From an uncultured Chloroflexia bacterium (GTDB lineage Bacteria; Chloroflexota; Dehalococcoidia; UBA2979), in contig CAVSIV010000001.1 of NCBI GenBank assembly GCA_963728205.1, positions 416,001-480,000 on the forward strand: a stretch of DNA of 64,000 nt, given 5' to 3'. The position numbers were made by a program, and so were the translations under genes. The number at the start of each line of letters is the position of its first letter. The first letter of the stretch is position 1. The notes under the pieces are model-generated. The model did not search any database and was not told the DNA's origin. It saw nothing but the letters and a program-made list of their open reading frames with translations. Shown in pieces: positions 2,326 through 28,304 of this stretch.

Positions 2326-3186
2326 CTAGAACTCGAGGTCCTGGCCGTGGCCGGCGACGTAGTAGACGCGCGGTCGCGTGTTCAGGTCCTCGCGGAGGCG
2401 GAACGCGTCGTTGTCGCGGAGGTAGTCGCTGAGCCGGTAGGTCTCGGTGCCGTTCGTCATCATGTCGGTCTTGAGATCGCCCATGAAGATGGCGTTCATG
2501 CCGCAGCCCTCGACGCAGCCCGGGAGCTTGCCGACGCGCGTGTTGTGCACGCACATCACGCACTTGCCGGCCGTGCCCTTGATCTGCGGCGTGGGGAACT
2601 CCGGGGTCGGCCCCGTCAGCGAGGCCGGCGTCGGCAGCGGATCGCGCCAGTTGAACGTGCGCGCCTCGTAGGGGCAGGCCGCCAGGCAGGCCCGGCAGCC
2701 GATGCAGCGCTTCTCGTCGACCAGCGTGACGCCGTCCGCGGTGCGGAACGTCGCGCCCACCGGGCAGACCTTCAGGCAGGGCGGGTCCTCGCACTGCATG
2801 CACGGCTGCGGCAGGAAGTACGTCTGGCCGGCGCTGTCCTGCAGCTCGTGGACCTTGATCCACGGCTGATCGGGGTGGAGGTAGTGCATCGCGTTGCACG
2901 CGTCCGTGCACTTGCCGCAGCCGTCGCACCGGCGGAGGTCGAAGACCATCACCCACTGGTGGTTCGCGAGGTCCGGCTGCTCGTTCGCGGCCTCGGTGGG
3001 GCGTGTGCGGCCGATCACGGGGATGCCGAGGCCCGCCGCCGCAGCCACGCCGGCCGCGGTGCCGAGCCCCGTCATGAGGCGGCGCCGCGACAGTCGCGAC
3101 CCGCCTCGCCCGCGCTCGCCCGCCGTGCTCGCTTCCGCGAGCGGGGTGTTCTCGCCGGTTTCAGGTCCGCTGGATGGGTCCGTCAT
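2326..3186 (-). CDS. Tat-exported four-cluster [4Fe-4S] protein (NrfC/DmsB/PsrB type)
   Basis: SRRRLM twin-arginine signal; four Cys groups CDGCGKCTDAC, CMQCEDPPCLKVCP, CIGCRACLAACP, CVMC...CVEGC; TRPRVYY tail. Confidence 0.93.
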   Translation of the reverse strand: MTDPSSGPETGENTPLAEASTAGERGRGGSRLSRRRLMTGLGTAAGVAAAAGLGIPVIGRTRPTEAANEQPDLANHQWVMVFDLRRCDGCGKCTDACNAMHYLHPDQPWIKVHELQDSAGQTYFLPQPCMQCEDPPCLKVCPVGATFRTADGVTLVDEKRCIGCRACLAACPYEARTFNWRDPLPTPASLTGPTPEFPTPQIKGTAGKCVMCVHNTRVGKLPGCVEGCGMNAIFMGDLKTDMMTNGTETYRLSDYLRDNDAFRLREDLNTRPRVYYVAGHGQDLEF

Positions 3187-3476: not shown

Positions 3477-4196
3477 ATGTCGTTGGAAGTTTCAGCTGCC
3501 CGAATTGACGAAACCGCAGCGACGGGCGCCCGCACGCCGCTGCGCGTGCTGGTCGTGGACGACCACGCACTGGTGGGCGAAGGCACCCGCCGGCTGCTCG
3601 AGCTCGAGCGTGACATGGTCGTGGTCGGCGTTGCGCGCAACGGGATCGAGGCGCTGGAGCTCGTCGAGCGCGAGCACCCGGGCGTGGTGCTCATGGACAT
3701 CGAGATGCCGGAGATGGACGGCATCGAGGCGACCACCCGCATCGCCGCCGACTACCCGGAAGTCGCGGTGCTCGTGCTCTCCGCCTACGACGACGACGAA
3801 TACGTCGAGCGCCTGGTCGAGGCCGGCGCGGCCGGCTACCTCCTCAAGGACGTGCGCGGCGACCAGCTGATCGAGGCGATCCGCTCGGTCGCGCGCGGCG
3901 ACTCCGCGCTGCACCCCACCATCGCACGCAAGGTGATGCGCTCGCTGACGCCGTCGGGGCACGGCGCGTCGGGCGCGGAGGTCGAGACGCTGTCCGACCG
4001 CGAGCTGTCCGTGCTGCGCCTCGCGGCGCGCGGGCTCGCGAACGAGGCGATCGCACTGCAGCTGGGGATCAGCGCCCGGACCGCGCAGGCGCACCTCTCG
4101 AACATCTTCGGCAAGATGCACGTCGAGTCGCGCACGCAGGCCGTGGTGGAGGCGCTGCGCCGGCGGTGGATCCGCCTGGAAGAGCTCGAGCCTTGA
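3477..4196 (+). CDS. NarL/LuxR-family response regulator
   Basis: Receiver domain (VVDDH, MDIEMP, GYLLKD) plus LuxR HTH (LSDRELSVL...SRTQAV). Confidence 0.95.
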   Translation: MSLEVSAARIDETAATGARTPLRVLVVDDHALVGEGTRRLLELERDMVVVGVARNGIEALELVEREHPGVVLMDIEMPEMDGIEATTRIAADYPEVAVLVLSAYDDDEYVERLVEAGAAGYLLKDVRGDQLIEAIRSVARGDSALHPTIARKVMRSLTPSGHGASGAEVETLSDRELSVLRLAARGLANEAIALQLGISARTAQAHLSNIFGKMHVESRTQAVVEALRRRWIRLEELEP

Positions 4197-5785
4197 CGGC
4201 TTCGCCCCGCGTCGCCGGCGCGCTGCACTGGCTCGCCGGTGCACGGCCGCACCCCGCCCCGGTGCGCCGCCGCGAGTTCTGGGTCACCCAGCTCCTCGTC
4301 ATCGTCGTCATCGCGATCGTCTACGGAACGCATCTCGCTGCGCAGCACCTCGAGCCGCGCGGCGGGACGATCGGCACGCTCGCGGAGATCCACGACGGCG
4401 TCAGCGCGCTCGCGATCATCCCGATCGTCTACGCGGCGCTGACGTTTGGGATGGAAGGGGCGATCCTCACCTCGCTGTGGATCGCGTTCCTGCTCGCGCC
4501 GCACACCATCTTCCCGCCCTCCACGAACCACCAGTGGCTGATGGACCTCGGCATCGGCGTGGGCAGCCTCACCGCGGCCCTGCTGCTCGCCGGCCGCATC
4601 CGTTCCGAGCGCCAGGCGCGGTGGCGCGCCGAGGCGATGTCCGGCCGCCTGCGCCTGCTCCACGGCCTCGGCCTCTCGCTGCGCCGGCCGCGCCCGCTCC
4701 GCGATCTCCTGCAGTCGTTCGCCGATACGCTGCGCGAGGGCATGGACCTCGACTACGTCGCGCTGTGGTTCAGCGCCGAGGGCGGCGAGGATCCGCTGCT
4801 CGTCGAGAGCGGCGATCACGCGCTCGGGGCGCTGCTCGACGCCGACGGCCTCCCCGCGTACGAACCGGATGTCGGCCGCGCATCCGGGGCGATCGACGTG
4901 CAGGCGCCGTCGGGCGACACCGCCGTCTTTCCGCTCACCGGCGAGCACTCGTCGTTCGGCGTGCTCGGCGTCGTCGCGCTCGATCGCGTCCTCTCCCACG
5001 ACGAGCGCGAGATTCTCGCGATCGCCAGCCTCGAGACGTCGGTCTCGCTCGAGGTGCTGCGCGTCGAGCAGATGCGACGCGAGTCGCTCGCGCTGTACGC
5101 GCGGCAGGTCACGAACGCGCAGGAAGAGGAGCGGGCGCGTATCGCGCGCGAGTTGCACGACGGCGTCGTGCAGGATCTCTCCGGCCTCGTGCGTGCGATT
5201 GATCTGGCCGACGAGGAGGCGCGCCGCGCCGGGGGCGTGCGCGAGCGCTCGCTCGAACCGATGCGCGACATCGCCTCCGAGGCGCTGGCCGAGCTGCGCC
5301 GCGTCACGCGCGACCTGCGTCCGACGACGCTCGACCGCCTCGGCCTGCTCGCCGCGATTCGCTCGCTGGCCACGGAGATGAGCGAGCGCACCGGCGTCGT
5401 CGTCGACTTCCACTTCGGCGACGCGCGGCCGCTGGCGCCCGAGAACGAGCTGTGCGTCTTCCGCATCGTGCAGGAGGCGCTGAGCAACGTGGAGAAGCAC
5501 GCCGGCGCGAAGCACGTCGAGGTCGAGGTCGCGTTCTCGGACCGTGAAGTGCGGGTCGAGGTGCGCGACGACGGCAGGGGCTACGCGCCGCCGGAGGACG
5601 CGAACGAGCTGGCGCGCCACGGGCGGTTCGGCGTGCTCGGGATGACCGAGCGCGCTGCGCTGGTCGGCGGCACGCTCGAGGTGTCCCGGCGTCCGCGCGG
5701 CGGGACACGGGTTGCGCTGGAGGTGCCGATCCGCTCGCCCGGCGATGTCGCGCTCGGGATGGCGGCGGCGGTGCAGCCGGCCTAA
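4193..5785 (+). CDS. Membrane sensor histidine kinase (TM region, GAF-like, HisKA_3, HATPase)
   Basis: ERARIARELHD H-box, QEALSNVEKHA, DDGRG, FGVLGMTERA; probable TTG start at 4193 overlapping the regulator stop. Confidence 0.93.
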   Translation: MTASPRVAGALHWLAGARPHPAPVRRREFWVTQLLVIVVIAIVYGTHLAAQHLEPRGGTIGTLAEIHDGVSALAIIPIVYAALTFGMEGAILTSLWIAFLLAPHTIFPPSTNHQWLMDLGIGVGSLTAALLLAGRIRSERQARWRAEAMSGRLRLLHGLGLSLRRPRPLRDLLQSFADTLREGMDLDYVALWFSAEGGEDPLLVESGDHALGALLDADGLPAYEPDVGRASGAIDVQAPSGDTAVFPLTGEHSSFGVLGVVALDRVLSHDEREILAIASLETSVSLEVLRVEQMRRESLALYARQVTNAQEEERARIARELHDGVVQDLSGLVRAIDLADEEARRAGGVRERSLEPMRDIASEALAELRRVTRDLRPTTLDRLGLLAAIRSLATEMSERTGVVVDFHFGDARPLAPENELCVFRIVQEALSNVEKHAGAKHVEVEVAFSDREVRVEVRDDGRGYAPPEDANELARHGRFGVLGMTERAALVGGTLEVSRRPRGGTRVALEVPIRSPGDVALGMAAAVQPA

Positions 5786-12006: not shown

Positions 12007-13518
12007 TCAGTCCGCGCCTTCGCGCGAGAGCTCCCCGTCCGCGATCTGCGCCGTAATCGTCGTGCCGCCGGCGCCCGACGCCACGGCGAACCGCCCCCCA
12101 ATCAGCTCCGCACGCTCTTGCATGCCCACGAGCCCGAAGTGGCCCTCGCGCGCGAGCGACGTCACGTCCTCGGGGACGGCGAACCCGACGCCGTCGTCGC
12201 TCACCGAGAGCGTGAGGCGCGACGGCTCGAACGCCAGCCGCACGCGCGCCGACCGCGCGCCCGCGTGCTTCTCCACGTTGCGCAGCGCCTCCTGCGCGAT
12301 GCGGAAGAGGGCGAGCTCCTGCGGCCCGCTCAGCCGCCGCGGCGCGCCGGTGACCACGAGCTCCGCGCCCCCCGCCAGCTGGCGCGCGGCGTCGTCGACC
12401 ACCAGCTCGATGGCCGCGCGGACGCCGAGGTCGTCGAGCACCGGCGGCCGCAGGTTGTGGCTGTAGCGGCGCACGCCCTGCAGGATCGTGCGCCCGAGAT
12501 CCGCCGCGTCCGCGAGCGGCGCGGCGACATCCGGCGCGGAGTCCTCCTCCAGCCGCTCGAGCCGCCGCACCAGGTTCACGAGTTCCTGCGCTGTGTCGTC
12601 GTGCAGCTCGCGCGCGAGGCGCTTTCGCTCGTCCTCGTGCGCCTCCGTCACCCGCCGCGCGTAGAGCTGCAGGCTCTCCTGGCGCTGCCGCCGCAGCACC
12701 GCGTTCTCGATCGACACCTGCAGCGCGTGCGCCGCCGCGCTCAGCACGTGCTGCTGCTCCGCGCCGACCGCCGCGCCCCGAGTTCGCGCGGTGAGCGTGC
12801 CGAGCCGGCCGGTCTTGCCGGCGAGCACGATCGCGATCGTCTCGCCCGGCGGCTCCGCCGCGACCGTCGCCGCGGGGTGGGCCGCGAAGCTCGCCTGCCC
12901 GCCGCCCGCGATCCCCGGCGCCAGCGCGAGCGTCAGCGACCGGAGGTCGAGCCCGGCGACGAGCCGGTCGAGGACCGCCGGGATCTGCGCCTCGATCTCC
13001 AGCCCCTCGGCCAGCGTCTCCGCCACGTCGTTGAGCAGCGCCAGGCTCGCGCTCGTCTGCTCGGCGCGCCGGCGCTGCGTCGTCTCGCGGTCGACGCGCC
13101 ACGCGACCACCACGCCGATCGGCAGGATGATGCCGAGGTGCGCGATCTCGATCACCCAGTGCGCGTGCTGCTCGTGCCACACCCACAGCGCCGGCAGCGC
13201 CAGCAGCGCTGACCAGATCGCCGTGAGCACCGCTCCCTCGGACCCGAAGTTCAGCGCCGCGTACACCAGCGGCACGATCAGCGCCGTGAGCGCGATGGCG
13301 TGCAGCGGTCCCGCAGGGTCCGTGTCGCCGAGCATCTCGATCGCGTAGTGCGCGCTCGTCGCACCGATCACCATCGCCTGGATCACCCAGAAGCGACGGT
13401 CGCGCATGTGCACGAGCAGGTGGCGCAACATCCGCCGCGCGGCGCGCCACGCGCGCCCCGCACCCGCCTCTGCCACGGCGCCGGCCTCGTCGCCCGGGAC
13501 GCTCGCGCTAGACCGCAT
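12007..13518 (-). CDS. Membrane sensor histidine kinase (HisKA_3), paralog of 4193..5785
   Basis: ERKRLARELHD, QEALRNVEKHA, DDGVGF, FGLVGMQERA; TM motif P.VYAAL.FG.EGA shared with the paralog. Confidence 0.93.
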   Translation of the reverse strand: MRSSASVPGDEAGAVAEAGAGRAWRAARRMLRHLLVHMRDRRFWVIQAMVIGATSAHYAIEMLGDTDPAGPLHAIALTALIVPLVYAALNFGSEGAVLTAIWSALLALPALWVWHEQHAHWVIEIAHLGIILPIGVVVAWRVDRETTQRRRAEQTSASLALLNDVAETLAEGLEIEAQIPAVLDRLVAGLDLRSLTLALAPGIAGGGQASFAAHPAATVAAEPPGETIAIVLAGKTGRLGTLTARTRGAAVGAEQQHVLSAAAHALQVSIENAVLRRQRQESLQLYARRVTEAHEDERKRLARELHDDTAQELVNLVRRLERLEEDSAPDVAAPLADAADLGRTILQGVRRYSHNLRPPVLDDLGVRAAIELVVDDAARQLAGGAELVVTGAPRRLSGPQELALFRIAQEALRNVEKHAGARSARVRLAFEPSRLTLSVSDDGVGFAVPEDVTSLAREGHFGLVGMQERAELIGGRFAVASGAGGTTITAQIADGELSREGAD

Positions 13519-14179
13519 CGAGATCCTCGAGGCGGAAGAGCCCGCGCTTGAGGCCGACGATGACGGCCTCCGTGCGCGATCCGACCCCGAGCTTCTCGAA
13601 GATGTGCGTCAGGTCGGCCTGCACCGTGCGCAGGCTGACGGACTCGTGGCTCGCGATGGCCTGGTTGCTCAGCCCGCAGGCCGCGAGGCGCAGCACCTCG
13701 CGCTCACGCTCGGTGAGGTCCTGGCCCGTCGTACCCGCCTCCGACCCGCCGGCCTGCGCCGCGAAGTGGGCCATCACCTTGCGCGCGATCGCGGGATGCA
13801 GGATCGGCTCGCCCGCGTGCACCAGCCGCACCGCGCGCACCACCTCCGCGGACGGGATGTCCTTCAGCAGGTAGCCGGCGGCGCCGGCCGACAGTAGCGC
13901 GAACACGTACTGGTCGTAGTCATACTGCGTCAGGATCAGGATCGCGGTCCCCGGCCTCAGCGCCTTGATGCGCTCCGTCGCCTCGATGCCGTTCATGTCC
14001 GGCATCGAGACGTCGAGAATGGCCACATCCGGCTTCAGCTCCTCGACCAGCCGCACCGCCTCGGCCCCGTCCGCCGCCTCGCCGACGACCTCGATGTCCG
14101 GCTCGCGGTCGAGCAGCTCGCGCGTGCCCTCACGGACCACGGGGTGATCGTCCGCCACGATCACGCGAATTGCCGTCAT
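13508..14179 (-). CDS. NarL/LuxR-family response regulator, paralog of 3477..4196
   Basis: MTAIRVIVADDH, LDVSMP, GYLLKD, LTEREREVL, SRTEAV. Confidence 0.95.
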   Translation of the reverse strand: MTAIRVIVADDHPVVREGTRELLDREPDIEVVGEAADGAEAVRLVEELKPDVAILDVSMPDMNGIEATERIKALRPGTAILILTQYDYDQYVFALLSAGAAGYLLKDIPSAEVVRAVRLVHAGEPILHPAIARKVMAHFAAQAGGSEAGTTGQDLTEREREVLRLAACGLSNQAIASHESVSLRTVQADLTHIFEKLGVGSRTEAVIVGLKRGLFRLEDLDAV

Positions 14180-14543: not shown

Positions 14544-15431
14544 GTGAACGTCGACCTGCCTCGCCGCGCGTTCCTGCGCCTCGCCGCCGCCGGCGGCGCG
14601 GCCGCTGCGGCCGCGCGCATCATCCCGCTGACCGGCGCGGGGACGACCGCCGAGGCCGCCGGCGCCGCCGCCACCGACACGGCCCGACTGCGCCGCTGGG
14701 CGATGATCATCGACCTGCGGGCGTGCGACGGCTGCCAGTCCGTGAACAAGCCGCCGCAGTGCACCGAGGCCTGCATCCAGGGCCACTACGTCCCCGAGCC
14801 GATGGAATGGATCCAGGTCTACGAGAGCGACCTCCCCGGCGGCGGCACGCAGTTCCTCCCCGCGCCCTGCCAGCAGTGCCAGAACGCCCCCTGCGTCGAC
14901 GTCTGCCCGGTGGGCGCGACGTTCCACACGCCGGAGGGCGTCGTCCTGATCGACCAGGAGCGCTGCATCGGCTGCCGCTTCTGCATGGCGGCCTGCCCCT
15001 ACGACCGTCGCTTCTTCAACTGGGGCCAGCCCTCGCAGCCGGCCGCCGCCAGCGACGTCCACTACGACATCGAGCACCAGACCCCGGCCAAGCAGGGCAC
15101 GGTCATGAAGTGCGACTTCTGCCCGGACATGGCCCGGGCCGGGCGCGCGCCCTACTGCGCCCAGGCCTGCCCGAACCACGCCATCTACTACGGCGACCTC
15201 GAGGAAGACGTCGCGTCGAACGGCGACCAGGTCGTCCGCTTCAGCCGCTTCGTCGCCGAGAACGCGGGCTACGCGTTCAAGGAGGAACTCGGGACGAAGC
15301 CGCGCGTCTACTACATCCCCGGTCACGGCGAGGCCGTCGGGCGCGACGCATTCACGCCCGGCCGGCTGCCCACCGACTGGCCCTGGCAGGACACGACGCT
15401 GAGGAAGGGGGCGGACACGTGGACGCGATGA
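14544..15431 (+). CDS. Tat-exported four-cluster [4Fe-4S] protein (NrfC/DmsB type)
   Basis: PRRAFL Tat motif; CDGC...CTEAC, CQQCQNAPCVDVCP, CIGCRFCMAACP, CDFC...CAQACP; GTKPRVYY. Confidence 0.93.
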   Translation: MNVDLPRRAFLRLAAAGGAAAAAARIIPLTGAGTTAEAAGAAATDTARLRRWAMIIDLRACDGCQSVNKPPQCTEACIQGHYVPEPMEWIQVYESDLPGGGTQFLPAPCQQCQNAPCVDVCPVGATFHTPEGVVLIDQERCIGCRFCMAACPYDRRFFNWGQPSQPAAASDVHYDIEHQTPAKQGTVMKCDFCPDMARAGRAPYCAQACPNHAIYYGDLEEDVASNGDQVVRFSRFVAENAGYAFKEELGTKPRVYYIPGHGEAVGRDAFTPGRLPTDWPWQDTTLRKGADTWTR

Positions 15432-16951
15432 GCTTCGGTCGTTCGGTCGAGCCCGCCGCCACCACGGCCCCGCCGGCGGCGACGGCAGCGACGGCCGCCG
15501 CGGGGACGCCGGACGAGGACGTCGACGTGTGGCGCGAGCGCCTCGAGGGGCGCGTCCTCGCGCCGCTGCGGCACACCAGCCGCGCCTACAGGATCTGGAT
15601 GGGCAGCCTCCTGGTCGTCCTCGCGTGGGCCTTCTTCGCATGGACCTACCAGGTGCGGCACGGCCTCATCGTCACGGGGATGCGCGACCGCATCTCCTGG
15701 AGCATGTACATCCTCACGTTCGTCTTCGTGATCGGCATCAGCCACGCGGGGACGCTGCTCTCGGCCATCCTGCGTGTCACGAAGGCGCGCTGGCAGCTCT
15801 CGATCACGCGCATGGCGGAGTTCATCACCGTCGTTGCGCTGATGGTCGGCGCGCTGTTCCCGCTCATCGATCTCGGGCGGCCCGACCGCGTGCTCAAGCT
15901 GCTGATCTACGGCCGCTGGCAGTCGCCGCTGCTGTGGGACCTGATGGCCGTGACCACCTACCTCGCCGGCAGCACCATCTACCTGATCCTGCCGCTGATC
16001 CCGGACTTCGCCCTCGCACGCGATCGGCTCACGCCCGACGCGCCGCGCTGGCGCCGCGCGTTCTTCACGGTCGCGTCGCTGGGCTGGACGGGCACCGAGC
16101 GGCAGCGCAGGGCGCTCGACCGCGCGATGACCGTGATGATGATCGCGATCATCCCGGTCGCGGTCTCGGTGCACACCGTCATCTCCTGGATCTTCTCGAT
16201 GACGCTGCGCACGCCGTTCAACAGCACGGTGTTCGGCGCGTACTTCGTCGCCGGCGCCATCTACTCCGGTGTCGCCGCGATCATCCTGCTGATGGCGGTG
16301 CTGCGGCGCCTGCTGCACCTCGAGGAATACATCACGAAGACCCAGTTCCTGGGTCTCGGATACCTCCTCGCCGGCATGGCGCTGATCATGCTGTATTTCA
16401 ACCTCTCCGAATACGTCACCACCGGCTACAAGATGGAAGCCGGCGTTCCCTTCCACTTCCAGGACCTGATGTCCGGCTACCTGGCGCCGATGTTCTGGTT
16501 CTACATCATCGGCGGCATCCTCGTGCCGCCGCTGCTGATCGCCATCCCGTGGACGCGCAACATCAAGGGCATCATCGTCGCTGCCGCGCTCGTGCTCGTC
16601 GCGATGTGGCTCGAGCGCTACCTGATCGTGATCGGCGGCTTCCGCGTGCCGCTGATGCCGTACGACCCGCGGCCCTACGCCCCGTCGTGGATCGAGTGGT
16701 CGATCTTCGGCGGAGCCGGCGCGCTCTTCATGTTCATCATCTCGGCCCTCGCCAAGGTCTTCCCGATGGTCTCCGTCTGGGAGGTCGTCGAGCACCGCGG
16801 ACCCGAGTCCGCGTGGGACCGGGCGCACCGCGACCTCGTCCCGGCGTCTCGCCGTGCCGAGCCGGTCGCGCGTCGCCGCGGCGCCGCTCCCGTGCCGGCG
16901 CCGGCGTTCGAGTTCGACGCGCGCAGCGCGGAGGAAGGAGTGGAGTCGTGA
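15428..16951 (+). CDS. NrfD/PsrC-family membrane protein, ActC-like
   Basis: GISHAGTLLSAILR, ITRMAE, DLGRP, SPLLWD, IPDFALARD, SVHTV, YFVAGAIYSG, MWLERY; ATGA overlap with the Fe-S gene. Confidence 0.93.
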   Translation: MSFGRSVEPAATTAPPAATAATAAAGTPDEDVDVWRERLEGRVLAPLRHTSRAYRIWMGSLLVVLAWAFFAWTYQVRHGLIVTGMRDRISWSMYILTFVFVIGISHAGTLLSAILRVTKARWQLSITRMAEFITVVALMVGALFPLIDLGRPDRVLKLLIYGRWQSPLLWDLMAVTTYLAGSTIYLILPLIPDFALARDRLTPDAPRWRRAFFTVASLGWTGTERQRRALDRAMTVMMIAIIPVAVSVHTVISWIFSMTLRTPFNSTVFGAYFVAGAIYSGVAAIILLMAVLRRLLHLEEYITKTQFLGLGYLLAGMALIMLYFNLSEYVTTGYKMEAGVPFHFQDLMSGYLAPMFWFYIIGGILVPPLLIAIPWTRNIKGIIVAAALVLVAMWLERYLIVIGGFRVPLMPYDPRPYAPSWIEWSIFGGAGALFMFIISALAKVFPMVSVWEVVEHRGPESAWDRAHRDLVPASRRAEPVARRRGAAPVPAPAFEFDARSAEEGVES

Positions 16952-17652
16952 ACCCCTCTCGCATCGCGGCGGCCGTCGCCGGCCCGCGTCGATCCAGCGT
17001 GCTCCTCGCGCTCGCCGCGGCGGCGGCGCTGGTCCTGGCGATCGCGCTCCCGGGCGCGGCCGCGGCGCAGGCCGCGGGCCAGCCCACCGCGATCGCCGTG
17101 GCGGCGCCGCGCAGCGTCCAGCTGGGGCAGGTCGTGACCGTGAAGGCGAAGCTCGTCGATGGCGGCGGGCAGGCGTTCCCGCACGCACGGGTCGACTTCA
17201 CGAGCCCCGAGACCTTCCTCAACACCACCGCCGACATGGTCGTCACGTCCGCGGTGACCGACGCCGACGGCGTCGCCACCGCGACCTTTCAGGCGCGGCG
17301 CTCCGGCGCGCTGACCGTGAAGGCGGTCTTCCGCGGCGACGCCACCTACGCGGGCTCCGAGGCGAGCACGCAACTGACCGTCACCGGCTCCGCGCAGCTC
17401 TACCAGCAGGAGGTGCTGCCGACGGTGCCCGGCCTGAACGCCTCGCCGATCGGCGAGTTCGCAACCGCCGGCGGGACGCGCTGGCTGCTGACCGGCTGGC
17501 CGATCGCGGCCGTGCTGCTCCTGGTGTGGTCGAGCTACGCGACCGCCGTGTTCTTCATGTCGCGCATCGCGGCCGCGGCGGACGCCGGTCCGGAGATCGC
17601 CGCCGCGGTCGCCGGGGCGGGCGGCGCCGGGAACGCTGGAGGTGAGCGATGA
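16948..17652 (+). CDS. Exported Ig-like protein with C-terminal membrane anchor, paralog of 271..924
   Basis: GTGA overlap; signal peptide; VKAKLVDGGG, TDADGVAT, VFRGDATY motifs typical of Big-type domains; C-terminal TM helix. Confidence 0.8.
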   Translation: MNPSRIAAAVAGPRRSSVLLALAAAAALVLAIALPGAAAAQAAGQPTAIAVAAPRSVQLGQVVTVKAKLVDGGGQAFPHARVDFTSPETFLNTTADMVVTSAVTDADGVATATFQARRSGALTVKAVFRGDATYAGSEASTQLTVTGSAQLYQQEVLPTVPGLNASPIGEFATAGGTRWLLTGWPIAAVLLLVWSSYATAVFFMSRIAAAADAGPEIAAAVAGAGGAGNAGGER

Positions 17653-18116
17653 GGCTCAATCGCTACTGGACGCTGCCGGCCGCCCTCGGGGCGATGGTGG
17701 TCGTGCTCGGGCTGACACTGCTCGTGATCGGCGCACGCAGCCCCTACACCCACGCGAACCGCGACGCCGGTCCCGACGCCGCCTACACGCGGACGCAGCA
17801 GACGCTCGTCGGCACCCCCGTGCCGTACGTGCCGCCCGGCCTGTCGAGCGCGGCGGCCGCGTCGTCCACGGACCAGGTCACGCTCGGCGGACGGCTCTTC
17901 GTCGCTGAGAACTGCGCCTCCTGCCACGGCATCACCGGCTCCGGCGGCACCTTCGCGCCGCCGATTCGTGGCTTCGACGTCACGGCGCTGCAGCAGAAGA
18001 CGCACGCCGGCCCGGGCGGCATGCCCGCCTTCGCCGGGCTGTCGGACGCACAGCTGCAGGCGATCGCGGCCTACCTGAAAGCGGGAACCAGTGCCCCGGC
18101 GGCGGCCGCCCGATAG
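17649..18116 (+). CDS. Membrane-anchored monoheme cytochrome c
   Basis: N-terminal TM helix, CASCH, distal MP.F, LSDAQLQAIAAYL. Confidence 0.92.
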   Translation: MRLNRYWTLPAALGAMVVVLGLTLLVIGARSPYTHANRDAGPDAAYTRTQQTLVGTPVPYVPPGLSSAAAASSTDQVTLGGRLFVAENCASCHGITGSGGTFAPPIRGFDVTALQQKTHAGPGGMPAFAGLSDAQLQAIAAYLKAGTSAPAAAAR

Positions 18117-18155
18117 CGGCGACACGCCAGTCCGGAGACAGCAAAGGAGATCCTG

Positions 18156-19256
18156 ATGGAACAGCAGCGGACAGACGGAACCGCCGGGGCAGCGGGTGAC
18201 CGGGACGGGCGCATCGCGCGCATCGCGACGGCGTCGCTCAGCCGGCGCCGGCTCCTGCGCGGCGGCGGCATCCTGATCGGCGCGGCCGCCGCGTCGCCGC
18301 TCCTCGCGGCCTGCGGCAGCAAGACCGACAGCTCCGCGGCCACCAGCCCCGCGCCGACGACGCAGGCCGCGGCGCCGGCAGCCCCCACCGTCGCCGCGCC
18401 GACGGTCGCGGCTCCCGCCGCGCCCACCACCGCGGCGGCCGCCGGCGGCGGCGCCTCCGCGCTCAGCGTGAAGGCGCACGAGGCGGGCGATCTCTTCCTC
18501 TACGACGTCGACAGGCAGTTGGTCGCGGCCGGCAAGACGACCTTCAACTTCACGAACACCGGCAAGCTCACCCACGAGCTCATGGTCTACCCGATCCAGG
18601 ATCTCGCCGAGATGCTTGCGAAGAAGCGCGCCGGCGACGACGTCGACGAGATGGACTACATCAAGGGCATGGCCGGCTCCGCCGAGGACATCGACCCCGG
18701 CAAGTCCGCCAGCTTCGACGCCGACCTCAAGCCCGGCCTCTACGAGCTTGCCTGCCACGTCATCGGCAAGAACGCCGACGGCAGCACGTTCCTGCACTTC
18801 GACCGCGGCCAGACGATGACGCTCGCCGTCACCGGCCCGGGCGGCCCGGCGGCGTCGATCCTCGACCCGAGCGACGCCATCGCCCTGCAGATGGTGAAGG
18901 GCACCGGCGACCTCGACAGCTCGTGGCTGTTCCAGCCCGATCACCTGGTGGCGAAGAGCGGCGACGTGAAGTTCACGATCACCAATCACATGGACATGAA
19001 CCACGACGTCGTCGTCTACCCACTCGGCAACATCAGCGACCTGATCAAGCAGCGTCTCGACGGCGGTGAGGACTACAGCATCATCAAGGGCCAGCAGCTG
19101 GCCGAGGATCTCGAGCCCGGCAAGAGCATCGACGCGACGGCCACCCTGACGCCCGGCTGGTGGGTCACGGCCTGCTTCGTCGTCAGCTCGCTGGCCGACG
19201 GGACGAAGTACGTGCACCGCGACCGCGGTCAGCGCGTGACCTTCCTCGTGCAGTAG
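18156..19256 (+). CDS. Tat lipoprotein with two tandem cupredoxin-like domains
   Basis: SRRRLL and LAAC lipobox; domain 1 FTNTGKLTHE...PGLYELAC...H..GQ; domain 2 ITNHMDMNHD...PGWWVTAC...H..GQ. Confidence 0.82.
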   Translation: MEQQRTDGTAGAAGDRDGRIARIATASLSRRRLLRGGGILIGAAAASPLLAACGSKTDSSAATSPAPTTQAAAPAAPTVAAPTVAAPAAPTTAAAAGGGASALSVKAHEAGDLFLYDVDRQLVAAGKTTFNFTNTGKLTHELMVYPIQDLAEMLAKKRAGDDVDEMDYIKGMAGSAEDIDPGKSASFDADLKPGLYELACHVIGKNADGSTFLHFDRGQTMTLAVTGPGGPAASILDPSDAIALQMVKGTGDLDSSWLFQPDHLVAKSGDVKFTITNHMDMNHDVVVYPLGNISDLIKQRLDGGEDYSIIKGQQLAEDLEPGKSIDATATLTPGWWVTACFVVSSLADGTKYVHRDRGQRVTFLVQ

Positions 19257-19452
19257 TCCCCGGGGGCGTGGACTGCGAGGGCGGGCGCGTGCCGCGGGGC
19301 GCCGCCCGCCTCTCGCCGTCCGGCGCACGCGCGCTCCGCGAAACGGCCCGCGGCTCGTGTGACGTTCGACCACGGTCGGGGCCGCAGCCGGCCGCCTAGG
19401 CTGGATGCGCCGGGATCGCGCCGCTCGCCACCCCGGGAATGAGGATGCCGCC

Positions 19453-19770
19453 ATGTGGGAATGGCATCACGGTGGTGCCGCATGGGGTTGGGGCTGGGTC
19501 TGGATGATCGTCGTGATGGCGATCGTCTGGGTGCCCCTCGTGTTCGCGTTCGTCTGGTTCCTGCGCAGCGCGGCCGGCCGCGGCCGCGCCGCGCCCGGAG
19601 CCGGGGACGGCGGCGAGGCCCCGCGGTCCGCAGTCGACGTCGACGCGCGCGAGATCGCCCGCCGCGCGTACGCGCGCGGCGAGCTCGACCGTGAGCGCTT
19701 CCTGCAGATCATGGAGGACCTGGGTGGCGGACCGCACGCGGGCCCCGGCGGCGGCGGGCCGCCGGCCTGA
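19453..19770 (+). CDS. SHOCT-domain membrane protein
   Basis: Trp/Gly/His-rich N-terminus, one TM helix, AREIARRAYARGELDRERF. Confidence 0.85.
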   Translation: MWEWHHGGAAWGWGWVWMIVVMAIVWVPLVFAFVWFLRSAAGRGRAAPGAGDGGEAPRSAVDVDAREIARRAYARGELDRERFLQIMEDLGGGPHAGPGGGGPPA

Positions 19771-19780
19771 GGTGGCGGCC

Positions 19781-20494
19781 GTGCGTGCGCACTCGCCGAG
19801 CGCGTTCGGCCGTCGCTCGCTTCGCCGCCGTGGCCTGCTCTGCGCCGGTCGTGCCGCTCCGCTCCTCGCGAGCGCGCTGCTGGTCGCCGCCGTGCTCGCC
19901 GGCTGCGCCCCCGCGGCGGGCGGCGCCGCGGGGGCAACCGTCGCGCCCACCGCGCCAATCCCCGCGGCGCCGACCGTGGCGGCGCCGACCATGCCGGCCG
20001 GGCTCGAGGGCGCGGCCGGTGCCGCGCAGCCGGCACCGACAACGACGCCCGCGCCGTCGGCGAGCGGCGCTCTCGGCGCTCCGGGCGCGCCCGGGGCCGG
20101 TGCACCGGCCGCGACGCCAGCTGCGAGCGCGCCCTACGCGCGCATGCCTGGTCCCGGTCGCATGCCGATGATGATGGGTGGGGCGTCGCGCTCCACTCCC
20201 TCGCCACGCGTCGACGCGACGCCCGGCACGCTCGCGACCCCGTCCGCCCCGACCCCGGCGGCGGCGACCTCCGCGCAGCTCTACACGGCGGATTGCGCCG
20301 TCTGCCACGGCACGTCGCGCCAGGGCGGGCCCGGACCCGCGCTCCTGCCCTCCACGCTCACGGGCGACGCCTCTTATTACGTGTCCGTCGTCGAGTACGG
20401 CGCACCCGGCACATTGATGCCGGGCTGGCTCGCGCAGGGCCTCACCGCCGATCGAATCCGCGCGCTCGTCGAGTACCTGCGCGCCGTGCCCTAG
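19781..20494 (+). CDS. Lipoprotein monoheme cytochrome c (c55X/NirC-like domain) on a long Pro/Ala linker; start approximate
   Basis: LAGC lipobox; CAVCHG...GGPGPALLP...GAPGTLMPGW. Confidence 0.82.
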   Translation: MRAHSPSAFGRRSLRRRGLLCAGRAAPLLASALLVAAVLAGCAPAAGGAAGATVAPTAPIPAAPTVAAPTMPAGLEGAAGAAQPAPTTTPAPSASGALGAPGAPGAGAPAATPAASAPYARMPGPGRMPMMMGGASRSTPSPRVDATPGTLATPSAPTPAAATSAQLYTADCAVCHGTSRQGGPGPALLPSTLTGDASYYVSVVEYGAPGTLMPGWLAQGLTADRIRALVEYLRAVP

Positions 20495-25000: not shown

Positions 25001-25549
25001 ATGCCCGCCGACCGCCCGCTCCTCCCCGGCGAGTACGCCGTCCTCGGCCTGCTCGCGGTCCGCCCGCAGCACGGCTACGAGATGGCGCGCACCTTCGGCG
25101 AACCGCCGCTCGCCGACGTCTGCCCCGTAGAGCAGAGCCTGCTCTACGCGTACCTGCGCAACCTCGAGCGGCGCGGCCTCGTCGACTGGGAGGAGGTGCG
25201 CGCCGGCAATCGCCCGCCGCGCAAGATCTACGCGCCGAGCGAGGACGGCTGGTCCCACCTGCGCGAGTGGCTCCACGCCCCCGTGGAGTGCATGCGCGAA
25301 ACGCGCCTCGACTTCCTGCTCAAGCTCTGGTTCCTGCGCCAGCTCGACCCGAGCGGCGAGCGCCGCCTCGTGGAGCAGCAGGTCGCCGTGTGCGAGCGCT
25401 ACGTCGCCGAGGCGCGTGCGCGTGCGCGCGCGGCGGACGGCTTCGGGGCCGTGGTCTGGGAGTCGAAGTGGCGCGTCGGGCAGGCGACGCGGGCGTGGCT
25501 GCTGGCTCACCTCGCGCGCACGCCGCCGCCCGGCCGCGAGGCGTCGTGA
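25001..25549 (+). CDS. PadR-family transcriptional regulator
   Basis: VLGLL..RPQHGYEM, LYAYLRNLE..GLV, PPRKIY, FLLKLWF. Confidence 0.92.
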   Translation: MPADRPLLPGEYAVLGLLAVRPQHGYEMARTFGEPPLADVCPVEQSLLYAYLRNLERRGLVDWEEVRAGNRPPRKIYAPSEDGWSHLREWLHAPVECMRETRLDFLLKLWFLRQLDPSGERRLVEQQVAVCERYVAEARARARAADGFGAVVWESKWRVGQATRAWLLAHLARTPPPGREAS

Positions 25550-26370
25550 GGCGCGCATCCGTGGGCGTGCGTGCCGCGCTCGTCGCGGTCCTCGCCGCCG
25601 GCGCCGTCGTCGCGGCGTGCGGCCGCGCCGGCGGCAGCGGCACGTCGATCACCGTGTCGGCCGCCGCCTCGCTCACCGACGCCTTCAGCGCCGTGGCGCA
25701 GGCGTACGAGCAGGCACACCCCGGAACACAGGTCAGGTTGAACTTCGGCGCGTCGTCGGCGCTCGCGACGCAGATCACGCAGGGCGCGCCCGTCGACGTC
25801 TTCGCCTCGGCGAACGAAGCCCAGATGCAGGTCGTCGCGCGGGCCGGTCTCGCGTCGCAGCCACGGGACTTCGCCGCCAACCGCATCGTGATCGCGGTGC
25901 CGCACGGCGCCACCGCCGTGCGCGCGTTCGCGGACCTCGCGCGGCCGGGCGTTCGCCTCGTGCTGGCCGGCGCCGAGGTGCCCGCCGGCGTCTACGCGCG
26001 CGCGGCGTTCCTGGCGGCCGGCGCCGCCGGGGCCTTCGGCCCGGACTTCGATCGCCGCGTCCTCACGAACCTGGTGAGCGAGGAGACCGACGTGCGCGCC
26101 GTCCTCGCGAAGGTCGAGCTGGGCGAGGCCGACGCCGGCGTCGTCTATGCCACCGATGCGCGCGTGGCGGGCGCGAAGGTCGACGTCGTGCCGATCCCCG
26201 ACGCCTACGCGCAGCCGGCGCGCTACCCGATTGCCGCCGTCGGCGCGGACGGCGGGTCGGCAACGGCCCGCGACTTCGTTGCGTTCGTGCTCTCCCCCGA
26301 CGGGGAGCGCCTCCTCGCCGGCTTCGGCTTCGCGGCGCCAGACGCGACGCCCGCCGCAACGGCGCCGTAG
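25546..26370 (+). CDS. modA: Molybdate ABC transporter substrate-binding lipoprotein
   Basis: VAAC lipobox; SAAASLTDAF, NFGASSALATQI.QGAP.DVFASA, VPAGVYA, GEADAGVVYATD. Confidence 0.95.
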   Translation: MRRASVGVRAALVAVLAAGAVVAACGRAGGSGTSITVSAAASLTDAFSAVAQAYEQAHPGTQVRLNFGASSALATQITQGAPVDVFASANEAQMQVVARAGLASQPRDFAANRIVIAVPHGATAVRAFADLARPGVRLVLAGAEVPAGVYARAAFLAAGAAGAFGPDFDRRVLTNLVSEETDVRAVLAKVELGEADAGVVYATDARVAGAKVDVVPIPDAYAQPARYPIAAVGADGGSATARDFVAFVLSPDGERLLAGFGFAAPDATPAATAP

Positions 26371-26376
26371 CCTCCA

Positions 26377-27192
26377 ATGCGCCGCTCGCCCGCCGTCGAC
26401 CGCTCCGCCGCCTGGGCGCTCGTGCTGCTCGGCGGCGCCTTCGCGCTCTTCTTCGCGCTGCCGTTCCTCGGGCTGCTCGCGCAGGCCGCGTCCGACGGCC
26501 GCGTCTGGTCGCTGCTCCGCGGCCGCGCGGCGCAGCAGGCGCTCACGCTCTCGCTCACCACCGCCACGCTGACCACCGTGATCGCCCTCGTCTTCGGGAC
26601 GCCCGTGGCCTACGCGCTCTCCCGCGGGCGCCTGCCCGCCCGGCCACTGCTCGACGCGCTCGTCGACCTCCCGATCGTCCTCCCGCCGACCGTGGCGGGC
26701 GTCGCGCTGCTCACCGCGTTCGGCCGGCGCGGCCTCTTCGGCGCGCCGCTCTCGCAGTGGTTCGGCGTCGAGCTCACGTTCACCACCGCCGCCGTCGTCT
26801 GCGCGCAGCTGATCGTCGCGGCGCCGTTCTATGTGCGCGCCGCGCGCGGCGGCTTCGACGCCGTCGACCCGCAACTCGAGCGCGTCGCCTACACGCTCGG
26901 CGCGTCGCGCGTCGAGACGTTCTTCCGCATCACCGTGCCGCAGGCGCGGCCGGCGCTGCTCGCCGGCGTCGTGCTGTGCTGGACGCGCGCGCTCGGCGAG
27001 CTCGGCGCGACGCTGATCTTCGCGGGCAGCCTCGCCGGCACAACCCGCACCATGCCGCTCGCGATCATCGACGCGCTCGAGCGCTCCAGCCTCGGCCTCA
27101 GCGGCGCGATCAGCCTCTCGCTGATCCTGCTCGGCGTCGCGCTCGTGCTGCTCATCGCCTTCCGGCTCGTCGCCCCGGAGCACCGCACGTGA
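26377..27192 (+). CDS. modB: Molybdate ABC transporter permease
   Basis: DLPIVLPPTVAGVALL, AYTLGAS, RALGELGAT, TRTMPLAI. Confidence 0.95.
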   Translation: MRRSPAVDRSAAWALVLLGGAFALFFALPFLGLLAQAASDGRVWSLLRGRAAQQALTLSLTTATLTTVIALVFGTPVAYALSRGRLPARPLLDALVDLPIVLPPTVAGVALLTAFGRRGLFGAPLSQWFGVELTFTTAAVVCAQLIVAAPFYVRAARGGFDAVDPQLERVAYTLGASRVETFFRITVPQARPALLAGVVLCWTRALGELGATLIFAGSLAGTTRTMPLAIIDALERSSLGLSGAISLSLILLGVALVLLIAFRLVAPEHRT

Positions 27193-28304
27193 TCCTCGAG
27201 TTCGATGCCGGCCTGCGCCTCGGCGACTTCGCCTACGACGCCGCCTTCGCGGTCGACGGCGAGATCCTCGTGCTGTTCGGCCACTCGGGCGCCGGGAAGA
27301 GCGTGACGCTGCAGGCGGTCGCGGGGCTGCTGCGGCCGGAGCGCGGGCGCATCGTCATCGGCGGCGAGCCGGTGTTCGACTCGGCCGCCCATCTCGACCT
27401 GCCGCCGCAGCGGCGACGCACCGGTTACGTCGTCCAGGAGCTCGCGCTGTTTCCGCACATGAGCGTCGTGGAGAACGTCGCGTTCGGGCTGGAGGGACCG
27501 CGCGTGGAGCGCCGGCGCCGTGCGGCCGCGCTGCTCGAGCGCTTCGGCCTCGCCGGCTTCGACGACCGCCGGCCGGCGTCGCTGTCCGGCGGGCAGAAGC
27601 AGCGCGTCGCGCTCGCCCGCGCGCTGGCGCGCGACGTGCCACTGCTGCTGCTCGACGAGCCGTTCTCCGCGCTCGACGAGGCGCTGCGCCGCATGCTCCG
27701 CTCGGAGCTGCTGCGCCTGCGCGCCGAGCTCGGGCTCGGCGTGCTCTTCGTCACCCACGACCTGCGCGAGGCGCACCTGCTCGCCGACCGCATCGCCGTC
27801 TTCGACGACGGCCGCGTCCTCCAGGTCGGCCCGCGCGACGACGTCTTCCGCCGGCCGGTGTCGCGCCGCGTTGGCGAGCTCACGGGGATCGCGAACCTGC
27901 TCGCGGGTGAGGTCGTCGCGCGCGGCCCGGGCGGCGCCGTGGAGGTGGAGGTCGACGGCCGGCGCCTGCGCTGCGCGCCTCCGGCCTTCGACGCGCGCGT
28001 CGGCGACCGCGTCGACGTCGCCCTGCGCGCGGAGCGCGTCGCGTTCCGCCGCGGTGCCGCCCCGTCGACGCCGAACCTGCTCGAGGTCGACGTCGTCGAC
28101 GAGCACGCGTACGGCGCGAGCCACACGCTGTGGCTGCGGCCCGTCGCCGGCGGCCCGCCGCTCGAGGCCGATCTGCCGTCGCGCCCCTACGACGTGCTCG
28201 GTGTCGCCGAGCGCCGTCGTTGGACGGTGGAGCTGCCCCCCGAGGACCTCCACGTGATGCGCGCGCCTGGCACTCCCGGCGCTCCCGGCGAACGCCGGGC
28301 GTAA
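27189..28304 (+). CDS. modC: Molybdate ABC transporter ATP-binding protein
   Basis: GHSGAGKS, LSGGQKQRVALARAL, LLLDEPF; C-terminal TOBE-like region; operon context. Confidence 0.92.
   Translation: MILEFDAGLRLGDFAYDAAFAVDGEILVLFGHSGAGKSVTLQAVAGLLRPERGRIVIGGEPVFDSAAHLDLPPQRRRTGYVVQELALFPHMSVVENVAFGLEGPRVERRRRAAALLERFGLAGFDDRRPASLSGGQKQRVALARALARDVPLLLLDEPFSALDEALRRMLRSELLRLRAELGLGVLFVTHDLREAHLLADRIAVFDDGRVLQVGPRDDVFRRPVSRRVGELTGIANLLAGEVVARGPGGAVEVEVDGRRLRCAPPAFDARVGDRVDVALRAERVAFRRGAAPSTPNLLEVDVVDEHAYGASHTLWLRPVAGGPPLEADLPSRPYDVLGVAERRRWTVELPPEDLHVMRAPGTPGAPGERRA

Follow-up and report, generated by a model that had tools for sequence, protein, structure and literature searches.

An operon for a predicted molybdenum-free quinol oxidoreductase of the ActB2/ActC type, with cytochrome c and di-cupredoxin genes, in an uncultured Chloroflexota bacterium

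Gene content of the operon

The DNA analysed here, in the following called the window, is a stretch of 64,000 nucleotides with a G+C content of about 72% from the genome of an uncultured Chloroflexota bacterium of the class Dehalococcoidia; positions given without further label count from its first letter. The subject is an operon at 14544-20494, where seven open reading frames (ORFs) lie on the plus strand in the same orientation. The first four, here called the core, encode an iron-sulfur (FeS) protein carrying a signal for twin-arginine translocation (Tat), a membrane protein of the NrfD family, an immunoglobulin (Ig)-like protein and a monohaem cytochrome c, and they resemble parts of alternative complex III (ACIII). 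For the sake of simplicity, we refer to this type of operon as module A. The seven genes are the following:

14544-15431, plus strand: Tat-exported FeS subunit with four predicted [4Fe-4S] clusters, ActB2/DsrO type; 295 amino acids (aa), RRAFL twin-arginine motif, exactly 16 Cys, Pfam Fer4_11
15428-16951, plus strand: NrfD-family, ActC-like membrane subunit, predicted to bind quinol; 507 aa, PF03916 at 125 bits
16948-17652, plus strand: Ig-like membrane-anchored protein; 234 aa, Big_3_5 at 40.3 bits (cut-off 35.5), hydrophobic N-terminal signal/anchor and C-terminal transmembrane helix
17649-18116, plus strand: membrane-anchored monohaem class I cytochrome c; 155 aa, PF13442, one CxxCH haem motif, N-terminal transmembrane helix
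18156-19256, plus strand: Tat di-cupredoxin lipoprotein, here called Cup2; 366 aa, SRRRLL motif, LLAAC lipobox, Pfam Cupredoxin_1
19405-19770, plus strand: small predicted membrane protein; 121 aa, G+C at third codon positions 0.87, no Pfam match
19691-20494 (start codon uncertain), plus strand: second monohaem cytochrome c, a lipoprotein; PF13442 at 42.8 bits, one CxxCH, LAGC lipobox, long Ala/Pro-rich linker

Four-base overlaps of start and stop codons link genes one to four (ATGA at 15428-15431, GTGA at 16948-16951 and ATGA at 17649-17652). An earlier note on this DNA had proposed this gene set with its coordinates and overlapping codons, and all of it holds except for one label. The ORF at 19405-19770 had been called a SHOCT protein, and it matches no Pfam family, PF09851 or other, even at an E-value (E) of 1. 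Its third-position G+C is coding-like, and neither the 80 survey loci nor the 18 cupredoxin loci described below contain a homolog of it.

A conserved core without a molybdenum-type subunit

Relatives of the module were collected in two ways. In a word-indexed search, 8000 candidates were scored and 6061 proteins had E <= 0.001; identities of the best 120 were 64-90%. In addition, a scan of species-representative genomes with two peptide patterns gave 443 confirmed loci (numbered with L in the following), and gene contents were counted by tblastn in the best 80 of these. By phylum, these comprise 64 loci from Chloroflexota, 8 from Actinomycetota, 2 each from Acidobacteriota and Pseudomonadota, and 1 each from Gemmatimonadota, Rokuibacteriota and Deferrimicrobiota.

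The FeS gene adjoins the NrfD gene in 79 of the 80 loci, and the module cytochrome c lies downstream of NrfD in 56 of the 58 loci that have at least 2.5 kb of downstream sequence. The Ig-like gene, which is the most divergent of the module, is detectable in 41 of 58.

Neither a molybdenum (Mo)-like subunit nor a pentahaem ActA, a second NrfD-like ActF or an ActD-like gene is present in the operon. The seven proteins contain, in gene order, 0, 0, 0, 1, 0, 0 and 1 CxxCH motifs; canonical Chloroflexota ACIII operons carry a gene of 179-219 aa with five of them. To extend this to the relatives, four Mo-type queries were used for tblastn, namely two ActB1-like proteins and the two large Mo proteins of the genome itself. 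They matched 1 of the 80 module loci versus 30 of the 40 loci of a comparison set (L098-L137: canonical ACIII, Mo-type and Dsr loci plus 9 module-type and intermediate loci). The single match among the 80 (L042) has 26% identity and lies 4 kb away on the opposite strand. The earlier note had reported the absence of the usual partners from the operon; this is borne out here and in the relatives, where a molybdopterin subunit is not a routine neighbour. ORFs with at least four CxxCH motifs are found near the module in a minority of loci, e.g. L013, L066, L068, L070, L085 and L086, according to crude ORF calls. Among the genes around the module, the 80 loci share no conserved catalytic or donor-oxidising enzyme.

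Relationship of the FeS and membrane subunits to ACIII

In a search against all PDB sequences, residues 42-455 of the membrane subunit matched the solved ActC chains (8k9e_C, 6f0k_C, 6btm_C and 6lod_C) at E 1.4e-45 to 1.9e-50. In the same search ActF appeared at E 0.021 and PsrC was absent at E 1. The subunit contains no Cys and no haem motif. Its stretches GISHAGTLxSAIL, SPLLWD and IPDxAxxRD, which had been called ActC-like, do align with the corresponding stretches of the solved ActC chains. In the case of the FeS protein, the alignment is full-length (residues 50-258) with the C-terminal FeS domain of solved ActB (6f0k_B, residues 796-1019; 8k9e_B), and the alignment with PsrB covers the first half only. 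All 16 Cys are invariant in an alignment of 26 homologs. Together with the trees described below, these matches support the assignment of the pair to the ActB2/ActC type.

The best NCBIfam profiles were DsrO for the FeS protein (178.5 bits, cut-off 200) and DsrP for the membrane subunit (134 bits, cut-off 350). Curated cut-offs were likewise not reached for NrfC (138.6 versus 377.6 bits), TtrB (123 versus 416), QrcC (117 versus 400) and QrcD (47 versus 570), and none of the partner genes of the NrfCD, Psr, Ttr or Qrc systems (NrfAB, a Mo subunit, QrcAB) is found in the operon. For comparison, canonical Chloroflexota ActC reaches 50 bits on DsrP, and canonical ActB2 reaches 136 bits on DsrO, its best profile being QrcC. 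By profile, the module thus appears somewhat more Dsr-like than the canonical ACIII subunits.

Trees of the membrane subunit were calculated with 79 rows (LG+G4, quick) and with 50 rows (LG+C20 with posterior mean site frequencies, quick). As references served canonical Chloroflexota ACIII operons (ActA with five CxxCH, ActB1 of 720-770 aa or a fused ActB of about 1040 aa, ActC and ActF), two true DsrP proteins (400 and 438 bits) and NrfD genes beside Mo subunits. Module A (33 and 17 rows), the paralogous module B (3 rows), a small intermediate group and canonical ActC/ActF form one clade with a support of 100 in the SH-like approximate likelihood ratio test. True DsrP and the Mo-type NrfD proteins fall on the opposite side of this 100-supported branch. 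Module A stands beside canonical ActC/ActF and not within it, the order of the three ingroup lineages being weakly supported (80-92). Identities of the membrane subunit follow the same trend, with 31-39% to Chloroflexota ActC and 26-27% to true DsrP. The earlier note had suggested a phylogeny against ActC, DsrP, QrcD, NrfD and PsrC. Of this, kinship with ActC and separation from DsrP stand, and the statement extends to the references named above, the trees having no rows for QrcD, E. coli NrfD, HybB or PsrC.

The intermediate NrfD group (L102, L103, L106, L107) is 40-46% identical to module A and takes a place in the tree between the modules and canonical ActC. At locus L102 (4294-10997), the intermediate NrfD gene is preceded by a PhsA/QrcB-like Mo-family subunit of 788 aa and small cytochromes, and downstream of it a protein of 697 aa is encoded that has a single CxxCH and matches no family.

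Predicted quinol site

In Rhodothermus marinus ActC, the quinol-site residues are His139, Asp169 and Asp253, with Ser164 conserved family-wide (PMC8076601). Equivalent positions were counted on the alignment with ActC, and conservation was taken from 16 homologs:

ActC Ser164: S166 in module A, invariant
ActC Asp169: D171 in module A, invariant
ActC His139: D148 in module A, nearly invariant
ActC Asp253: I255 in module A, nearly invariant

The His139 position has been described as needed for quinol (de)protonation, and an Asp at this place is listed for DsrP, QrcD, HybB and Wolinella succinogenes PsrC (PMC8076601). Because these proteins also have an Asp there, the site of module A looks functional, yet it differs from the canonical ActC kind.

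Evidence for one membrane complex

Gene fusions connect the subunits of the core. Among the best 120 homologs of the membrane subunit, 25 carry Big_3_5/Big_1 domains in the same polypeptide, with the Ig part at the NrfD C-terminus. In one of these (P0085), residues 471-666 are Ig-like, follow NrfD and are 41% identical to the Ig-like protein of the window over 202 residues. Fer4 domains are found in the same polypeptide as NrfD in 24 of the 120. In the fusion P0117 the order is NrfD, then FeS, and the FeS part is 67% identical to the FeS protein of the window.

In the Ig-like protein, only G60, T104, G108, G130 and W194 are invariant among 26 sequences, and the same alignment contains no conserved Cys, His or Met. 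Because of this lack of possible ligands, the protein is probably a structural subunit without cofactor. In the case of the anchored cytochrome c, C89, C92, H93 and M125-P126 are invariant, and so is a segment SPYTHxNL...YxRT...G just after the transmembrane helix. Such conservation next to the membrane would be odd for a freely diffusing carrier, and this cytochrome is the probable electron exit of the core.

For complex prediction, FeS residues 46-295, NrfD 35-460 and Ig-like 45-212 were used with cytochrome c residues 1-147 as partner. The scores were 0.72, 0.74 and 0.71. Controls with a replaced partner gave 0.00 and 0.00, yet a control with replaced NrfD still gave 0.68, and the prediction is given no weight on either side. 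Overall, gene order, fusions and conservation suggest that the four core genes most likely encode one membrane complex, with the cytochrome as its putative fourth member.

As a separate observation, some relatives have the FeS part in another place. The FeS domain is fused behind NrfD (P0117 and 23 others), or the FeS gene follows NrfD (L022, L026, L027, L030, L033), and a hydrophobic segment is found at the place of the Tat signal. Given this arrangement, one may ask by what route a four-cluster domain crosses the membrane in folded form when it makes up the C-terminal part of a polytopic protein.

The di-cupredoxin lipoprotein and the second cytochrome

An AlphaFold2 model of Cup2 shows two cupredoxin sandwiches, is confident from residue 100 on and has a predicted local distance difference test (pLDDT) above 90 for 259 of 366 residues. 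Foldseek places two-domain multicopper oxidases and NirK on top, with low template-modelling scores and a differing domain arrangement. No HxH motif is present in Cup2; this excludes a trinuclear copper site, and hence a multicopper oxidase.

Each domain has its own set of conserved candidate ligands in an alignment of 24 sequences. In domain 1, H140, C200 and H214 are invariant and Q219 is nearly so; in domain 2, H283, C340 and Q359 are invariant and H354 is nearly so. The spacing is Cys-x13-His-x4-Gln in both. Profile matches are weak (E 0.0065-0.064) and concern the EfeO Cup domain, lipid-modified azurin and auracyanin A. In the azurin alignment H140 and C200 fall on the two flanking conserved motifs of azurin, which presumably hold its copper His and Cys. 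Each domain is thus predicted to form a type 1 copper site with His-Cys-His-Gln ligation. Gln in place of the usual axial Met, as in stellacyanin, lowers the potential. Compared with the type 1 cupredoxins azurin, auracyanin and stellacyanin, Cup2 likewise has the cupredoxin fold with a conserved His...Cys...His, and it differs by two domains per chain, a 13-residue Cys-His loop and Gln where most have Met. Auracyanin is a lipoprotein, like Cup2.

Cup2 has 56 detectable homologs. In 17 of 18 Cup2 homolog loci the gene directly follows the module cytochrome c, the 18th being a distant single-domain match; the link between cupredoxin and module that had been suggested from this one operon is therefore general for Cup2. 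Cup2 occurs in 11 of the 50 module loci with at least 5 kb of downstream sequence. Because of its position in the 17 loci, Cup2 is a dedicated, lineage-specific add-on of one branch of module A. The second cytochrome is even less widespread, since its cytochrome domain is matched at 36-37% in 2 of the 80 loci (L066, L068) and is otherwise not conserved. Counting Cup2, the small ORF and the second cytochrome as parts of a minimal module is therefore not supported, as they lie outside the conserved core (11 of 50, 0 of 80 and 2 of 80 loci, respectively).

Adjacent two-component system

Two genes of a two-component system lie upstream of the operon and are divergent from it:

13508-14179, minus strand: LuxR/NarL-type response regulator, receiver domain and GerE (Pfam), start at MTAIRV
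12007-13518 (start codon uncertain), minus strand: sensor histidine kinase, HisKA_3 and HATPase_c (Pfam), N-terminal sensor region with several transmembrane segments

A LuxR-type regulator is found by tblastn within 9 kb of the module in 58 of the 80 loci, which agrees with the idea of a regulator of its own. Response regulators flanking modules in Dehalococcoidia and Anaerolineae loci are up to 70-74% identical to the product of 13508-14179, and kinases adjoining the module at other loci are 47-50% identical to that of 12007-13518.

The membrane region of the kinase has a conserved pattern, FW..Q...HY..E / P..YA..G.EGA, in 12 module-side homologs and in the two window kinases (12007-13518 and 4166-5785). 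This N-terminal region, which has neither a Pfam domain nor a CxxCH, could sense the state of the membrane or of the quinones and would then be a sensor type not yet described. No operator-like motif common to the promoter regions of both window modules was found, only one shared 9-mer per orientation. As for transcription, a search of sequencing runs listed no RNA run, and two DNA runs shared 0.10 and 0.05 of the sequence words.

Paralogous module, neighbouring genes and genome context

The window holds a second, paralogous module, module B:

2326-3186, minus strand: FeS protein
921-2300, minus strand: NrfD protein, 38% identical to that of module A
271-924, minus strand: Ig-like protein
3477-4196: LuxR-type regulator
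4166-5785: kinase

Module B continues beyond the window to contig position C1 413990 (L150 7990-10237) with two lipoproteins, c6 (214 aa) and c7 (512 aa). The latter has a Pfam TIG match of 32.7 bits and, by eye, four similar repeats. No clear cofactor motif was seen in c6 or c7.

The same lipoprotein pair c6/c7 follows the cytochrome in 9 related loci. As oxidase subunits these two neighbour clusters were rejected, Pfam giving nothing for c6 and a weak TIG match for c7, and cluster c11, considered as NosZ, is a pyridine-nucleotide oxidoreductase. In L050 (12580-14311, checked with Pfam), the cupredoxin is replaced after the cytochrome by an EB_dh lipoprotein (haem-binding, DOMON-like) followed by a HmuY-like protein, and ORFs similar to this pair are present in L041, L062, L072, L073 and L077, which are Dehalococcoidia-type loci. 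A sulfocyanin/plastocyanin-like cupredoxin lies upstream of the FeS gene in 3 loci. Recurrent neighbours are the cytochrome c biogenesis genes ResB, CcsA and CcdA, and thioredoxin. In the window itself, the Mo-free operon is followed at a distance of 5 kb by an ABC transporter (SBP_bac_11 binding protein, permease and ATPase; 25267-28304), which is preceded by a PadR regulator. The SBP_bac_11 family includes proteins that bind molybdate, tungstate or sulfate.

The genome assembly comprises 6 contigs with 4.13 Mb in total, its completeness being 89%. It contains three NrfD-family genes, i.e. those of the operon, of the paralogous module and of a formate dehydrogenase locus, and none of them is of the ActF type. 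PF00384 matches lie on contigs C6 and C2 only, none of them within the window. One is a formate dehydrogenase of the selenocysteine type, accompanied by FeS and NrfD-like genes of its own, another a 1099-aa FdsA-like cytoplasmic protein with Fer2, Fer4 and Mo domains (the adjoining gene being NuoE-like by eye), and the third is NuoG. No orphan periplasmic Mo subunit was found in this 89% complete assembly, a search that the earlier note had suggested.

At the formate dehydrogenase locus (contig C6, 517974-523119; L002, L003 and L007), the Mo subunit gene contains an in-frame TGA, probably read as selenocysteine, and adjoins the NrfD-family gene. The locus resembles the tentative FqoABC complex (PMC8076601). 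Other respiratory genes of the genome comprise four loci with COX1 (haem-copper oxidase), four with cytochrome b and one with cytochrome bd.

Discussion

ACIII (ActABCDEF; 6f0k, 6btm, 6lod, 8k9e) is, judged by homology, the system closest to the module. Both have an ActC-type quinol subunit and a four-cluster FeS subunit like the C-terminal domain of ActB, which Chloroflexota ACIII operons, too, often encode as a separate gene of 241-276 aa. A monohaem cytochrome c as exit and a blue copper protein as likely acceptor are further common traits, auracyanin being the likely electron acceptor of ACIII in Chloroflexus. However, four defining parts are absent in the module, namely the pentahaem ActA, the Mo-like ActB1 domain, ActF and an ActD-like gene, and the Ig-like subunit with two anchors stands in their place. 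Moreover, the module is outside the canonical ActC/ActF clade and has Asp for ActC His139 and Ile for Asp253.

According to the earlier note, the partner of an NrfC/NrfD pair is normally a Mo subunit, a hydrogenase or a multihaem cytochrome, and the module would on this view be categorically new. This does not stand, as Mo-free complexes of an FeS protein, a membrane subunit and an anchored cytochrome have already been described from genomes. Geobacter Cbc4 (CbcSTU) is a Mo-free quinol complex of this composition with a tetrahaem cytochrome of the NapC/NirT type (bioRxiv 10.1101/2025.04.14.648717), Methanoperedenaceae groups 4/5 have Mo-free NrfD-type menaquinone:cytochrome c oxidoreductases (PMC7327174), and the Mo-free Ferrigenium SU1-SU3 complex has been likened to ACIII (bioRxiv 10.64898/2026.01.22.701106). 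According to these reports, they share with the module a 4x[4Fe-4S] protein, a membrane subunit without cofactor and an anchored cytochrome c, with no catalytic subunit. Their cytochromes are tetra- or hexahaem, in contrast to the single haem of the module, the likeness being one of described composition, and an Ig-like subunit or a di-cupredoxin is reported for none of them.

Two further systems come into consideration. In DsrJOP of DsrMKJOP, an FeS protein of the periplasm, an NrfD-like subunit and an anchored cytochrome c likewise come together without a Mo subunit, but the module stays below the DsrO and DsrP cut-offs, has no DsrM, DsrK or DsrJ genes and is separate from true DsrP in the tree. 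In clade II N2O reductase clusters, NosGH-NosC1/C2 form a quinol dehydrogenase in which a polyferredoxin and monohaem cytochromes c feed a copper protein (PMC11539149, PMC3475470). This is an analogy of function only, and NosGH was rejected as a homolog of the module, being described as NapGH-like, not NrfCD-like (PMC3475470). A search for nos_propeller gave no match in this genome, nor did it give one in the control genomes. Thus, the kind of complex is already in print. A published description of the variant with FeS, NrfD, Ig-like and monohaem proteins, or of a Gln-type di-cupredoxin, was not found in a literature search that excluded supplements and most subscription-journal papers on ACIII modularity, and the accessible part of the NrfD review lists no such complex (PMC8076601).

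Taken together, we consider it probable, with moderate confidence, that the core is a Mo-free quinol:cytochrome c oxidoreductase of the ActB2/ActC type, which in this lineage feeds the di-cupredoxin. In such a mechanism, quinol would be oxidised near the outer face of the NrfD-like subunit, and the electrons would cross the Tat-exported subunit by way of its four [4Fe-4S] clusters and reach the haem of the anchored cytochrome c. The Ig-like protein with its two anchors would have a structural role without a cofactor. In this lineage, electrons would go on to the membrane-tethered di-cupredoxin with its two putative Gln-ligated blue copper sites of the low-potential type, and the second lipoprotein cytochrome c is perhaps also an acceptor. 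The end point would be a terminal oxidase or reductase encoded elsewhere, and the adjacent LuxR-type two-component system would switch the branch on. The direction from quinol to cytochrome is suggested by the usual potentials, since His/Met monohaem cytochromes c and blue copper sites are normally far more positive than menaquinone and electron transfer from menaquinol to them is downhill. By analogy with ACIII, proton pumping by the module is a possibility. As cytochrome b and haem-copper oxidase are encoded at four loci each in the genome, the module is an extra, regulated branch and not a substitute for a missing complex III.

Several observations speak against this assignment. Two of the three named quinol-site residues of ActC are changed (His139 to Asp148, Asp253 to Ile255). 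With cytochrome b, haem-copper oxidase and cytochrome bd loci present, a further quinol:cytochrome c step is unneeded for aerobic respiration. For copper binding and for Gln as the axial ligand, the basis is conservation together with weak alignments (E 0.006-0.06), the final acceptor is inferred only, and the whole family is known from sequences alone. Most of all, module B has neither cytochrome nor cupredoxin, only the c6/c7 lipoproteins. Therefore the core does not always feed a cytochrome, and this is the main observation that the favoured assignment leaves unexplained.

The same parts could also work in the opposite direction, with a donor in the periplasm or outside the cell, for instance a reduced metal or reduced carrier protein, giving electrons to cupredoxin or cytochrome c, and from there over FeS and NrfD to the quinone pool. 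NrfD-family complexes do run both ways, and Qrc, a cytochrome c3:menaquinone oxidoreductase, reduces quinone (PMC13059093). Reverse flow would parallel Qrc in sulfate reducers and a role proposed for ACIII in iron oxidisers, and the module is nearer to the DsrO/DsrP profiles than canonical ActB2/ActC (178.5 versus 136 and 134 versus 50 bits). The dedicated sensor system, which suggests substrate induction, and the weak EfeO-Cup-like matches of the cupredoxin domain would fit as well. However, energy would have to be supplied to reduce quinone from a His/Met haem c or blue copper, the 80 loci have no conserved enzyme next to the module that oxidises a donor, and true DsrP falls outside the clade, so that we regard this direction as unlikely. 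A role in periplasmic metal handling or redox repair, where quinol electrons let the copper lipoprotein reduce or oxidise Cu or Fe ions or damaged proteins (EfeO-type, MsrPQ-like), appears less probable still. In its favour, the genome needs no further complex III, the accessory genes by the core vary widely from locus to locus (cupredoxins, EB_dh/HmuY-like proteins, TIG lipoproteins), and Cup2 has, besides Cupredoxin_1, a weak EfeO match on its LxPGxYExxC motif. This match has 29 bits against a family cut-off of 270, though, and the operon contains no EfeU, EfeB or transporter gene. Both domains have a complete type 1-like ligand set typical of electron carriers, and across at least 7 phyla cytochrome c is the sole constant partner of the core.

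That the module is an ordinary member of the ACIII, DsrMKJOP or Psr/Nrf systems, with missing subunits encoded elsewhere or lost in assembly, is largely refuted and retains a very small probability. The genome is 89% complete and the FeS subunit scores just below the DsrO cut-off, which would leave room for it, but this compact gene arrangement is seen again in 79 of the 80 loci, which come from many assemblies, and none of the three NrfD-family genes of the genome is of the ActF type. In addition, no curated cut-off is reached for DsrO, DsrP, NrfC, QrcC/D or TtrB, and the tree sets the module apart from both canonical ActC/ActF and DsrP.

Beyond the favoured quinol:cytochrome c oxidoreductase, a wider interpretation can be put forward tentatively, which we hold to be possible rather than likely. 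In it, the FeS-NrfD-Ig trio would form the common part of a family of "mini alternative complex III" machines that spans phyla and has gone unrecognised; its members would be energy-conserving, each switched by its own membrane-embedded sensor kinase. Its exit subunits would then be of a plug-in type, and, equally speculatively, monohaem cytochrome c, Gln-ligated di-cupredoxins, EB_dh haem-b proteins and cofactor-less TIG lipoproteins might be counted among them. The cytochrome-less paralog in the same genome provides a built-in comparison. If this interpretation were true, the complex III step would have in this family its third general solution, next to bc1/b6f and ACIII.

In conclusion, the core is currently annotated as "polysulfide reductase NrfD" or "HybB-like", and such names mislead metabolic reconstructions. 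Should the module indeed function as a quinol:cytochrome c/cupredoxin oxidoreductase, it would illustrate how few parts of ACIII suffice and would offer a natural two-site blue copper carrier with Gln ligation. It would also add a respiratory branch point in abundant uncultured bacteria of soil and groundwater.

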